Shown here piece after piece: positions 30,001 through 33,000 of a stretch of DNA of 64,000 nt (the stretch's first letter is position 1; each line of letters opens with the position of its first letter). A program made the position numbers. Origin of the DNA: Escherichia coli (GTDB lineage: Bacteria; Pseudomonadota; Gammaproteobacteria; Enterobacterales; Enterobacteriaceae); NCBI RefSeq assembly GCF_001677475.2, contig NZ_CP015229.1. One strand, written 5' to 3'.

Positions 30001-33000
30001 CAAGATAATGGTATGTGCCCGGGAATGCACCTGCTTTATGTAGATGCGTTGATTTTTTGGATAAAAAAAACCAATTGTAAGTTTTTTTCACATTTTATAG
30101 ATACTTTAAGTAGGATAACATGCTGTTTTAACTAGCTATATGCCGGATTTGTCTGCCTGCTGAAAACCATGCCTTAGCCACCAGCACAATAATCTTACAA
30201 AAGGTCATATAAGAATAAATAGATGTTAATAATACAATGGGTTTGTAACGCGAGTATTTAAATATAATATTGCGAGCTAAGTGAAAACGTTAAGTAATTG
30301 AAATAATCTTTCATTAAAAGCGTTTCTTATTGATCGAGAAATAAGTTTTCTATTTAATGCAAATAAGTTAAGGATAAACTGGAATGAAATAAAGTGAGCG
30401 ATATTGTTTACCTGAGAATAATCGGTGAGAAGCAGGGCGATATTTCTTCAGGCTGTGGGACGTATGCGTCGGTTGGTAATCGCTGGCAGGTTGGCCATGA
30501 AGATGAAATTTTTGCCTTTGCACTCACCAACGCCATTACCAGTACTGGTAATGGCGTTAATCTACAGGGGCTACAATTTTGCAAACTCATTGATAAAAGC
30601 TCACCGCTACTGTCTAATGCCATCAATCAGAATGAGCGGTTATTTATTGAAATCGATTTGTATCGTATAAATAAAAGCGGGCGCTGGGAACGGTATTATT
30701 ATATTCAGCTAAGAAATGCTTCATTAACTGCTATTCATGTAAACATTTCTGACAATAATCTTCCTACCGAATGTGTAAATGTTAATTATGACTACATATT
30801 ATGCAAACATCTAATAGCCAATACGGAATTTGACTGGTTGGCCTTTCCTGCTGGCTATAATAGCTTATTTATTCCACCTAAAAACCCACCTGCCAGTAAT
30901 CTTAAGCCTGAGCCGCTACCAGTAGTTAACCTTCCACTCTCTTCACCAGCGGTTAACCCGGTCTATGCCAAATCCTGTCTGAAGGAGAAGGGATGTACAG
31001 ATGCTGGAACGGCAGAAGAACCCGCTGAAAACTTCGGTCAAGTAGCGATTTTTGCTCAGCCAGTGGTTGATGACTGCTGTGGATACCACCATCCCGAGGC
31101 TAACGATGTCGGGCAACCCACAGAAGCTCAAACCATGCTACTGTTTCCGGGGAGTGTGTTGGCGGCTCAAATATGGGGAAAATGGTCGCTCAGTGGCATA
31201 CTCAGTGCAACCCGCGGCTCTTACATCGGTGCGTTGGCATCTGCTTTGTATATTCCCTCTGCGGGCGAGGGCAGTGCTCGCGTGCCCGGACGTGATGAGT
31301 TCTGGTATGAGGAAGAACTGCGGCAGAAAGCACTAGCAGGCAGTACCGCCACCACCCGGGTACGTTTTTTCTGGGGAACTGACATTCACGGCAAGCCTCA
31401 GGTGTATGGTGTTCATACGGGTGAAGGTACGCCGTATGAAAACGTCCGCGTGGCGAACATGCAGTGGAACGAGCAGACGCAGCGTTATGAATTTACCCCC
31501 GCTCACGATGTCGATGGCCCCCTGATTACCTGGACGCCGGAAAATCCGGAACATGGGAATGTTCCGGGCCATACCGGTAACGACAGGCCGCCGCTGGATC
31601 AGCCCACCATTCTGGTGACGCCGATTCCGGACGGTACAGATACCTATACCACGCCGCCATTCCCGGTTCCTGATCCGAAAGAATTCAACGATTATATTCT
31701 GGTTTTTCCGGCGGGATCCGGTATTAAGCCCATCTATGTTTACCTGAAGGAGGATCCGCGAAAGCTGCCTGGTGTTGTAACAGGGCGCGGCGTCCCGCTT
31801 TCATCAGGAACTCGCTGGCTGGATATGTCGGTATCCAATAACGGCAACGGCGCACCAATCCCGGCGCATATTGCTGATAAATTGCGCGGACGGGAGTTTA
31901 AAACCTTTGATGAGTTTCGCGAGGCGCTGTGGCTGGAGGTGAGTCAGGATCCGGAGTTGATAGCGCAGTTTTCAAGTGGTAACCAAGCACGTATAAAACA
32001 AGGATTAACCGCAAAAGCACCTATTGACGGTTGGCATTATGGCCCTAAAGAAATAGTTAAAAAATTCCAGATACATCATCGTGTTGCAATTGAATATGGC
32101 GGCAGCGTATACGATATTGATAATTTACGAATTGTTACCCCCAGACTGCACGATGAGATTCACTACAGGAGATAAATATGTTTAAAGAAAAGCTCCAGGA
32201 TTATACCGAGGATGAATTTCTTAATTTTTTAGGCGGATTGAGATCATCTATGAAAGATGGAAAATCCTTAAAAGGTAAGGAGCTAGAAATGTACTGGGAT
32301 TCATTAGTAGATCATTTTATTGAAATTACACAGCATCCGTCAGGGAGCGATCTAATTTTCTACCCTAAAAGTCAAGGAGATGATAAGCCTGAAAACATCC
32401 TGAAAATTGTCAAAGAATGGCGGCGTTCACAGGGGTTACCCTTGTTTAAAGACTCTAAATAAAGTAGATAATAAAACTATATATGGAACATCATCGCATC
32501 TGGCTAATACGATGATATTAATGACATAAAATAATAATGTGATTGCTCTTAAAAAACAGGTAGAAATACTGAAGCCTCATTAGGTTATTTTATCATTTTC
32601 CCGCTTTTACCGATACCCTTTGGCTGGAGGTGAGTCAGGATCCGGAGTTGATAGCGCAGTTTTCAAGCGGTAATCAAACACGTATAAAACAAGGATGAAT
32701 CGCAAAAGCACCACTTGAAGGTTGGCATTATGGCACTAAAGAAATCGTTAAAAAATTCCACATGTATCATCGTGTTGCGATTGAATATAGTGGCGGAATT
32801 TACGATATTGATAATTTAAGGAGGGCACACCTCATTTGCATGATGAAATTTATTACAGGAGATAGTTAAATGTATAATTTTAAAGATAAAATAGAAGATT
32901 ACACAGAGCGGGAATTCATTGAGTTGCTTGGCGAGTTTACAAATCCAACCGGGGATAACGCTCAATTAAAAGGGGAAGAGCTTGACAAATATTGGGATGA

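Follow-up and report, generated by a model that had tools for sequence, protein, structure and literature searches.

An Im-family immunity gene behind an Hcp-ET3-4-type DNase effector gene in Escherichia coli

Gene organization at the aroP–pdhR locus

The window analysed here is a 64,000-nt stretch of Escherichia coli DNA (contig NZ_CP015229.1) in which a toxin gene is followed, on the same strand, by an immunity gene that we call imm1. The toxin gene (30394..32175, + strand, GTG start) encodes a 593 aa effector of the Hcp-ET3-4 type, recognized by its Pfam, TIGR03344 and PDB matches and by its RefSeq name, tssD. The protein combines an Hcp/TssD domain (aa 1–146; Pfam T6SS_HCP, 1.2e-12) that scores 125 bits against TIGR03344 (cutoff 58.9), an S-type pyocin domain (aa 309–450; Pyocin_S, 3.2e-40) and a colicin/pyocin HNH DNase domain (aa 460–591; Col-Pyo_DNase, PF21431, 8.1e-42). 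The DNase domain also matches PDB domains of pyocin AP41, colicins E9, E2 and E7, and pyocin S2 at 1e-32 to 1e-27, and its catalytic residues H561, H562, H586 and H590 (the HH...H...H motif) are intact. A preliminary description of this DNA had placed a DNase toxin next to an immunity gene of the colicin E type. The DNase stands, but the toxin is not a colicin: Pfam and TIGR03344 reveal an Hcp fusion belonging to type VI secretion (T6SS). We therefore rejected the identification of the toxin as a colicin, because an Hcp domain fused to Pyocin_S and Col-Pyo_DNase domains denotes a type VI secretion effector. The toxin gene and imm1 lie between aroP and pdhR, the usual E. coli site.

The 3′-terminal ~250 nt of the toxin gene (31927..32175, + strand) constitute an exchangeable DNase tip, delimited by comparison of alleles and by the position, 31927, at which homology to orphan fragments starts. 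The tip is flanked by the conserved anchors TGGCTGGAGGTGAGTCAG... and ...CTACAGGAGATAA, and GC content drops at it from ~54% to ~36%. Three E. coli toxin allele classes differ solely within this interval, which encodes the HNH motif and, presumably, the exosite bound by the immunity protein.

The imm1 gene (32178..32462, + strand) is an ATG ORF encoding a 94 aa colicin/pyocin DNase immunity protein (MFKEKLQDYTEDEFLNFLGG...ITQHPSGSDLIFYPKSQGDD...), and the motifs DYTEDEFL and QHPSGSDLIFYP, which had been picked out beforehand, are both present in its translation as quoted. The gene layout reported in the preliminary description is equally accurate. The ORF calls place imm1 2 nt past the toxin stop (TAA, 32173–32175; AT spacer, 32176–32177; ATG, 32178), with its own Shine–Dalgarno sequence, AGGAG (32167..32171, + strand), lying within the last toxin codons and 6 nt upstream of the ATG, and the toxin-then-immunity order follows from the position of the Col-Pyo_DNase domain at the toxin C-terminus, directly upstream of imm1. 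The ...CTACAGGAGATAA motif precedes each immunity gene of the array, and is kept in four strains.

Translational coupling of imm1 to the toxin had also been suggested. The junction layout would allow such coupling, but imm1 has a Shine–Dalgarno sequence of its own. Occlusion of this sequence was sought by RNA folding of the 121-nt junction and none was seen: the RNA (−12.6 kcal/mol, z = +0.67 versus shuffles) folds no better than shuffled controls, and the centroid structure leaves both the Shine–Dalgarno sequence and the ATG unpaired. An AT-rich inverted repeat 3′ of imm1 (ATCATCG-N13-CGATGAT, 32490..32516) was not flagged by the terminator scan and is not convincing as a terminator, because a T-run is absent.

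Further downstream lies an orphan DNase-tip fragment (32618..32869, + strand), a pseudogene whose homology to toxin nt 31927–32175 was established by local alignment and three-frame translation. The fragment is 85% identical to the window toxin tip overall and 88% identical in the variable core. It contains a window-specific in-frame TGA (32696–32698), additional to the changes seen in the UTI89-type locus; QIHH is altered to HMYH, and a 1-nt deletion abolishes the RIVTPRLH motif. RefSeq labels for the fragment in other strains are a 79 aa hypothetical protein or a pyocin-S2/colicin E7-DNase domain protein, and the inactivating changes of the orphan fragments (HH to YH, and the frameshift) are common to all strains compared.

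The fragment is followed immediately by imm2 (32870..33160, + strand), an intact Im-family gene of 96 aa identified from the ORF list, by alignment and by its RefSeq name, ‘bacteriocin immunity protein’. The imm2 product is 62–64% identical to that of imm1, and the gene has its own AGGAG at 32857–32861. The decayed tip and intact imm2 that follow imm1 are an orphan immunity array. Located 3′ of imm2 is an inverted repeat, AAAATCATCAC-N11-GTGATGATTTT (33185..33217, + strand), with too few G-C pairs to be caught by the terminator scan; it may act as a weak terminator closing the array.

Family, fold and contact residues of the immunity protein

Sequence matches, predicted fold and gene position agree in supporting imm1 as a full-length member of the colicin E-type DNase immunity protein family. 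Residues 2–91 match the entire Pfam model PF01320, Colicin_Pyocin (positions 1–82 of 82; E = 8.1e-30, 103 bits), and 28 distinct immunity-protein sequences in the PDB match imm1 at E values from 2.5e-20 (ImAP41, 4uhp_B) to 2e-10, with Im7, Im9, Im8 and Im2 reaching down to ~1e-15. Searches of both immunity proteins, imm1 and imm2, against the NCBIfam models matched 0 families. The recognition of an Im-family gene from motifs alone is thus confirmed, a result of little new biology. The narrower label ‘Im9-like’ holds at the level of the Im family, but the nearest solved relative of imm1 is the pyocin AP41 immunity protein, and the first tyrosine of helix III is replaced by phenylalanine.

The AlphaFold2 model of imm1 (pLDDT 83.7) is a prediction from a seven-sequence alignment that contained Im9 and Im7. 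It places helices at residues 11–26, 33–51, 56–61 and 71–84, and so depicts a putative small four-helix Im fold in which helix III (residues 56–61) is short. In a Foldseek search with this model, the best 40 matches were all colicin or pyocin DNase immunity proteins (TM 0.63–0.89, mostly 0.7–0.89), the best of them with query-normalised TM values of 0.76–0.84 and an rmsd of 2.0–2.9 Å, and matches from rank 41 onwards had E > 1. The region has a GC content of 35–36%, at which stop-free stretches are not unusual, as would be expected if imm1 were a chance ORF in AT-rich DNA. That explanation is already refuted by the PF01320 match (E = 8e-30), the PDB matches, the Im fold and the existence of an identical RefSeq protein, and we assign it a negligible probability.

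The correspondence proposed between QHPSGSDLIFYP and the helix III contact region of Im9 is borne out by both the alignment and the modelled helix. The imm1 segment SDLIFYP aligns to S50–P56 of Im9, the sequence of which was verified, so that D51, Y54 and Y55 of Im9 are equivalent to D58, F61 and Y62 of imm1. The Asp and the second Tyr of this triad are retained and the first Tyr is conservatively substituted by Phe, whereas imm2 has both Tyr residues. Phe at position 61 is compatible with binding, because a complex of Im9 Y54F with the E9 DNase has been solved (2gzf, which is among the Foldseek matches).

Distribution of the module and specificity of its DNase tips

In UTI89, SCU-124 and the E. 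coli type strain ATCC 11775, RefSeq lists a protein 100% identical to imm1 under accession WP_000471928.1, with the name ‘bacteriocin immunity protein’. Of 5,426 complete genomes of E. coli, ~1,050 carry the imm1 locus, in 955 of which imm1 is at least 95% identical, and the imm2 module was found in 1,057 of the 5,426. The Hcp-ET3-4 locus of UTI89 occupies the same aroP–pdhR site and has the same Hcp, Pyocin_S and colicin DNase architecture as the window; in UTI89 the region contains tssD, WP_000471928.1 and then two further immunity genes. The toxin shared by UTI89 (WP_000502504.1, tssD) and ATCC 11775 differs from the window toxin at 14 of 593 residues (97.6% identity). The number of immunity genes varies, from two in the window to three in UTI89 and ATCC 11775 and four in ST131 MB1159. 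Judged by sequence comparison, the window module is a member of Hcp-ET class ET3-4, with which it agrees in domain architecture, locus, near-identical sequence and repeated immunity genes.

Two reviews (PMC6730261, PMC6099711) summarise the account of the Hcp-ET3-4/ETI3-4 module of UTI89 given by Ma et al. 2017 (Virulence 8:1189). In the first of these, UTI89_C0121 is listed as Hcp-ET3-4, the toxin is described as antibacterial, and all duplicated immunity copies of the UTI89-type locus are reported to have helped to neutralise it (PMC6730261). Both imm1 and the module are, therefore, already known, the former as a RefSeq-annotated protein and the latter as a T6SS effector–immunity module published in 2017.

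The breadth of this distribution also bears on whether the locus is a relic, in which genes persist without expression or delivery (for example, for want of a compatible T6SS) and imm1 has no current protective role. The locus is an orphan hcp locus: a search for T6SS structural genes in the part of the window with syntenic annotation (~50 kb) found none. In addition, promoter and terminator scans of the region gave nothing above chance, with nine promoter-like sites compared to 11.0 ± 3.1 in shuffles. However, the toxin and immunity ORFs are both intact and the catalytic residues are retained, the module is conserved in ~1,050 genomes with the imm1 identities given above, and activity has been published for the UTI89-type locus (PMC6730261). 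Decay is confined to the displaced fragments, indicating that it does occur once selection is lifted, and we consider it very improbable that the module as a whole is a relic.

Comparison of alleles places a nearly constant immunity protein behind divergent DNase tips. An imm1 allele that differs at three residues (Q7E, D12E and S30P) follows the ST131-type tip, which differs from the window-type tip at 18 tip residues and has ~64% DNA identity to it in the exosite-coding core. Where E9 has its hot spot F86, the window-type tip has Lys (K542) and the ST131-type tip has Phe. The variable core of the window tip shares 88–90% identity with all of the orphan fragments, as against 63–64% with the full-length tips of the ST131 and MCJCHV-1 types. 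MCJCHV-1 has a different DNase tip and, directly behind the toxin, a different immunity type that is nearly identical to imm3, the third, orphan copy of the type strain. This co-variation of tip and immunity type favours imm1 as the immunity protein of the toxin beside it.

Window-like fragments precede imm2 and also imm3, and a fragment thus does not identify its immunity partner. No living full-length toxin with an imm2-associated tip was found when 40 rows were drawn at even intervals from the ranked list of 1,058 genomes with a match; in these rows, the annotation over the imm2 module was a short fragment protein (or, for the one partial match, the immunity gene alone), and never tssD. As nearly constant imm1 alleles follow tips that differ at 18 residues, and as the window tip is nearest to the fragments that precede imm2 and imm3, the window toxin may have other inhibitors besides imm1, or one that binds it more tightly. 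The Lys at the F86-equivalent position also weighs against the pairing of imm1 with this toxin.

A further-reaching alternative is that imm1 is a genuine Im protein but not the specific cognate of the window tip, with protection conferred by the whole array and imm2 perhaps an equal or better inhibitor; the window tip itself may have been copied in, by gene conversion, from a fragment of the type that precedes imm2 or imm3. Non-cognate Im proteins bind colicin DNases with measurable affinity via the conserved helix III (Kd of 1e-6 to 1e-10 M, compared to about 1e-14 M for cognate colicin pairs), a property that counts towards this alternative, as do the closeness of the window tip to the orphan fragments and the small change in imm1 across two such different tips. 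The contribution of every immunity copy to neutralisation at the UTI89-type locus (PMC6730261) points the same way. Nevertheless, adjacency of the toxin and its cognate immunity gene is the rule in the family, and the presence of window-like fragments before both imm2 and imm3 yields no partner assignment. The inactivating changes of the orphan fragments are, moreover, absent from the window toxin, and since the fragments carry them in all strains, simple copying-in of a fragment would have produced a dead toxin. We therefore regard a non-cognate imm1 as unlikely, and retain imm1 as the probable partner of the adjacent toxin.

A recent import of a cassette comprising the tip and imm1 was also considered and was rejected. 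Differences between the window and the closest genome are evenly spread without a mosaic, at 0–8 per 200 nt in genes, and reach 15 per 200 nt only in the aroP–hcp intergenic region.

The near-invariance of imm1 against divergent DNase exosites bears on the specificity rules of colicin DNase–Im recognition. One speculative reading, to which we give only a small chance, is that, at the E. coli Hcp-ET3-4 locus, diversification of the DNase exosite is uncoupled from the neighbouring immunity gene. Neutralisation of both tips by imm1 would make it an Im protein of naturally broad specificity; were the reading true, the conserved array of tip fragments would be more than debris, a store from which gene conversion could switch the tip.

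Proposed role and comparison with known systems

It is very likely that imm1 is the immunity protein of the chromosomal T6SS module Hcp-ET3-4/ETI at the aroP–pdhR site of E. coli. Our data directly support the assignment to the family, the fold, the arrangement of the genes, the identity of imm1 with the UTI89 protein and the intactness of the catalytic motif in the toxin; binding, neutralisation, co-transcription and delivery by a T6SS are inferred. The toxin, which joins an Hcp tube subunit to an S-type pyocin domain and an HNH DNase, would be fired into neighbouring bacteria by a T6SS encoded elsewhere in the genome, and its DNase would cut DNA inside them. By analogy with the family, imm1 would be made from the same transcript as the toxin, using its own Shine–Dalgarno sequence, and would bind the DNase exosite beside the active site. 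Helix III (D58, F61 and Y62) would supply most of the binding energy, with specificity residing in the variable helix II and the helix I–II loop, and binding would keep the nuclease from reaching the DNA of the producer and of its sister cells. Most likely, then, imm1 shields the producer from the Hcp-DNase nuclease, a role for which the experimental support is second-hand, from reviews. The orphan module, comprising the decayed tip and imm2, may widen protection to cover related variants of the toxin. For extraintestinal pathogenic E. coli (phylogroup B2, ST131), the Hcp-ET3-4 module as a whole bears on competition between strains.

The pairs colicin E9/Im9, E7/Im7, E2/Im2 and E8/Im8 provide the classical point of comparison. 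Their immunity proteins have the Pfam family and four-helix fold in common with imm1, share with it the N-terminal DYTE.EF and the helix III pattern D-L-I-(Y/F)-Y-P, and are likewise encoded directly 3′ of an HNH DNase domain. The identity between imm1 and the colicin Im proteins is 40–45%, imm1 carries seven inserted residues between its helices I and II, and it has Phe where Im9 has Y54. Whilst the colicin pairs are plasmid-borne, the window module is chromosomal and without a lysis gene, and the toxin is an Hcp fusion for T6SS, whereas colicins are released and have receptor-binding and translocation domains.

The best solved match for both partners is pyocin AP41/ImAP41 (4uhp), at E = 2.5e-20 and 47–48% identity for the immunity protein and 1.3e-32 for the DNase. 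ImAP41 and imm1 share the extended helix I–II loop (...LKG.ELE...), but helix III of ImAP41 is divergent (SGVIFHP), and AP41 is a soluble bacteriocin of Pseudomonas rather than a T6SS effector.

A T6SS-delivered relative of the toxin is VPA1263 of Vibrio parahaemolyticus (NF047924), with which it shares the Pyocin_S and colicin DNase half: toxin aa 202–590 correspond to model positions 375–711 at 213 bits, a score far below the 900-bit NF047924 cutoff, so that the window toxin is not a member of that family. VPA1263 is described as a MIX-type effector; the N-terminal delivery domain of the window toxin is, in contrast, Hcp.

Orphan immunity arrays that arise by effector displacement are known from the T6SS of Vibrio cholerae (Kirchberger et al. 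2017, PMC5361080), and there are also CDI and Rhs orphan modules. As in the V. cholerae arrays, the extra immunity genes of E. coli lie 3′ of the active pair, each after a remnant of an effector 3′ end. One of the orphan types has its counterpart in the active pair of a different strain, imm3 of the type strain being nearly identical to the first immunity gene of MCJCHV-1. All of the E. coli orphan fragments belong to one, window-like tip lineage, whichever immunity type follows, a pattern not expected from simple sequential displacement.

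An Hcp-fused nuclease and its adjoining immunity gene

The first immunity gene, imm1, is an ORF of 94 codons with an ATG start (32178..32462, + strand), located directly downstream of a toxin ORF of 593 codons (30394..32175, + strand) whose TAA stop codon (32173-32175) is separated from the imm1 start by 2 bases. A Shine-Dalgarno sequence, AGGAG, lies 6 nt 5′ of the ATG (32167-32171, + strand), and these coordinates bear out the preliminary description of a 94-aa ORF beginning 2 nt past the toxin stop with its own ribosome-binding site. The translation reads MFKEKLQDYTEDEFLNFLGGLRSSMKDGKSLKGKELEMYWDSLVDHFIEITQHPSGSDLIFYPKSQGDDKPENILKIVKEWRRSQGLPLFKDSK, and therefore contains both of the motifs that had been quoted as hallmarks of DNase immunity proteins. 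The predicted fold of the RNA spanning the toxin-imm1 junction is no more stable than that of shuffled controls (z = +0.67) and has the Shine-Dalgarno sequence and ATG of imm1 unpaired; judged by its geometry, the junction would allow translational coupling of the two genes. Promoter and terminator scans of the locus returned only chance-level signals.

The toxin combines an N-terminal Hcp/TssD region (TIGR03344, 125 bits against a cutoff of 58.9; Pfam T6SS_HCP also matches) with an S-type pyocin domain (aa 309-450, Pfam E = 3.2e-40) and a colicin/pyocin DNase domain (aa 460-591, Pfam E = 8.1e-42). This three-domain make-up marks the toxin as a nuclease-bearing tube subunit of type VI secretion, not as a colicin. 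PDB matches to its DNase domain are the DNase domains of pyocin AP41, colicins E9, E2 and E7, and pyocin S2 (1e-32 to 1e-27), and the HNH residues H561, H562, H586 and H590 are all present.

By synteny with annotated E. coli genomes, the module is sited between aroP and pdhR, within a stretch of otherwise core chromosome that extends from the dcw cluster as far as the yad genes, and the syntenic annotation places no T6SS machinery genes within about 50 kb of it. The GC content of the toxin gene is a mosaic: it is 35-43% over the Hcp-encoding portion, climbs to 54-56% through the Pyocin_S domain and into the DNase domain as far as its midpoint, and drops to 35-37% from the DNase tip on through the immunity array (30394-33160 overall), a pattern consistent with assembly from parts of different origin. 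Compared with the closest genome, the locus diverges most in the aroP-hcp intergenic region (29800-30200; 31-38% GC), where 200 nt contain 15 differences as against 0-8 elsewhere; this region contains two weak promoter-like sites on the + strand, at 29953 and 30087, from a scan that was at chance level overall.

Distribution and published accounts of the locus

The 3.4-kb locus is present at a coverage of at least 80% in 1,055 of 5,426 complete E. coli genomes, where it is annotated as tssD plus ‘bacteriocin immunity protein (x2)’. Copies of imm1 with 100% DNA identity occur in the type strain ATCC 11775, among others, and the imm1 product is 100% identical to RefSeq WP_000471928.1 of SCU-124 and ATCC 11775, which is also found at the same position in UTI89. 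The review PMC6730261 describes UTI89_C0121 as ‘Hcp-ET3-4 ... Pyocin S3 and colicin DNase’, crediting Ma et al. 2017, and reports three duplicated immunity genes downstream of it, antibacterial activity of the toxin and a contribution of every immunity copy to neutralization; PMC6099711 gives an account of Hcp-ET3-4 that agrees. The hcp-et3-4 cluster was reported again in a 2025 preprint, from isolates of B2 and F. The imm1 gene had already been both annotated and published.

A search of plasmids with imm1 gave classical colicin and klebicin immunity genes as the nearest relatives (35-45% identity). The sole near-identical match in the plasmid collection (96.8%) was CP054241.1, an 834-kb E. 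coli record carrying four copies, which is probably part of a chromosome misfiled under plasmids. Across positions 20000-44000 of the window, the best identity among the 5,426 complete genomes was at most 97.6% (at most 98.5% over the toxin locus). Such a value over a 24-kb core stretch is low for E. coli, and the window probably derives from a sparsely sampled Escherichia lineage. Despite this divergent core, the identity of imm1 to B2 strains such as ATCC 11775 is complete at the DNA level.

The immunity array and variable DNase tips

Between imm1 and the second immunity gene, imm2, alignment revealed an orphan fragment (32618..32869, + strand) homologous to the final 249 nt of the toxin gene, and comprising a copy of the DNase exosite and HNH motif. 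The fragment is dead, because it carries an in-frame TGA at 32696-32698 (window only; TTA, encoding Leu, in other strains), a QIHH to HMYH change (HH to YH) and a 1-nt deletion that destroys the RIVTPRLH motif, the last two being common to all strains examined. The terminal ...CTACAGGAGATA... is retained, and hence so is a Shine-Dalgarno sequence, AGGAG (32857-32861), 5′ of imm2.

The ORF list and alignment show imm2 (32870..33160, + strand) to be intact, encoding 96 aa that are 62-64% identical to the imm1 product, with both helix III tyrosines retained. The last 25 C-terminal residues (PENILKIVKEWRRSQGLPLFKDS) are identical in every immunity copy in all strains seen, unlike the N-terminal two-thirds, which are strongly divergent, a pattern that suggests either that gene conversion has acted at the 3′ end or that helices I-II have been under diversifying selection. 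The number of immunity genes per array is two in the window and SCU-124, rises to three in UTI89 and ATCC 11775, and reaches four in an ST131 strain. AT-rich inverted repeats, neither flagged by the terminator scan, lie 3′ of imm1 (ATCATCG-N13-CGATGAT, 32490-32516) and 3′ of imm2 (AAAATCATCAC-N11-GTGATGATTTT, ending in a short T-run, 33185-33217); the latter may be the terminator of the array. That the locus is an unexpressed relic is very improbable: the ORFs are intact in about 1,000 genomes, which counts against a relic since the displaced fragments did decay.

At least three tip classes can be distinguished among full-length E. coli toxins, and they vary only between two conserved anchors (after WLEVS and before DIDNL...HYRR). 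The window-type tip occurs in about 332 complete genomes, including UTI89 and ATCC 11775; the ST131-type tip, seen in ST131 strain MB1159, occurs in 553, all at least 99% identical; and a third type occurs in MCJCHV-1. The core DNA of the classes is 63-66% identical to each other, comparing window positions 31940-32120 with two comparison loci from other strains (L006:2263-2443 and L003:5657-5905). In colicin DNases, residues 72-98 form the immunity exosite. By alignment, the variable stretch covers the equivalent of E9 residues ~63-105, and takes in N75, F86 and K97, positions at which E9 mutants have been crystallized with Im9 (PDB entries among our structure hits). Where E9 has F86, the window toxin has Lys (K542), the ST131 type has Phe and the MCJCHV-1 type has Tyr.

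Behind the MCJCHV-1 tip lies an immunity gene of another type, nearly identical to the third, orphan copy of the type strain, a pairing that fits orphan immunity genes guarding against the toxins of other strains, as proposed for Vibrio cholerae arrays (PMC5361080). Two observations make the pairing of tips with immunity genes untidy. ST131-type and window tips differ at 18 residues, whereas the immunity gene at the ST131-type locus differs from imm1 by just Q7E, D12E and S30P. Orphan fragments are all window-like, at 88-90% identity to the window tip in the core, whichever immunity type comes next. DNase exosite diversity may be uncoupled from immunity diversity at this locus. The cognate status of imm1 therefore rests on adjacency and a second-hand experimental report rather than on clean co-variation. 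It is conceivable, though rather unlikely, that imm1 encodes a real Im protein but that other proteins also inhibit this tip, or do so better, a situation compatible with imm1 being an immunity gene.

Fold and proposed action of the imm1 product

The single Pfam-A match of the imm1 product is Colicin_Pyocin (PF01320, E = 8.1e-30), covering the full model (positions 1-82 of 82), and the Im-family membership originally proposed is thereby confirmed. The top match among PDB sequences is the pyocin AP41 immunity protein (4uhp_B, 2.5e-20), followed by Im7, pyocin S2 Im, Im9, Im8 and Im2 at 1e-18 to 1e-15. An AlphaFold2 model (pLDDT 83.7, pTM 0.77) has four helices (11-26, 33-51, 56-61 and 71-84), and Foldseek hits 1-40 against the PDB are all colicin/pyocin DNase immunity proteins (query-normalized TM 0.76-0.84 for the top hits), with E-values leaping to >1 past hit 40. 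The sequence, Pfam and fold matches together refute a chance ORF.

Family, fold and layout agree with the earlier reading of imm1 as a DNase-toxin immunity gene, which was essentially right: imm1 very probably encodes the immunity protein for the adjacent Hcp-fused DNase, and the mechanistic details are put forward with less confidence. In the model we favour, the toxin and immunity genes would be co-transcribed from upstream of hcp, and imm1 would use its own Shine-Dalgarno sequence for translation. Its four-helix product would bind the DNase exosite, helix III acting as the anchor, and helix II and the extended I-II loop providing specificity. Binding would keep the nuclease off the DNA of the producer until a T6SS, presumably encoded elsewhere, fires the Hcp fusion, and imm2 may widen the protection.

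The N-terminal DYTE.EF motif of Im9 and Im7 is conserved in the imm1 product, as is their helix III motif, the Im9 contact region named in the preliminary description. In the alignment, for which the Im9 sequence was checked against 1e0h, Im9 D51/Y54/Y55 correspond to D58/F61/Y62 of imm1; the Tyr to Phe change at F61 is, from the residues aligned, conservative, and a crystal structure of Im9 Y54F with the E9 DNase is on record (2gzf, among the Foldseek hits). Compared with Im9 and Im7, the imm1 product is longer by 7 residues between helices I and II, an insertion also present in ImAP41.
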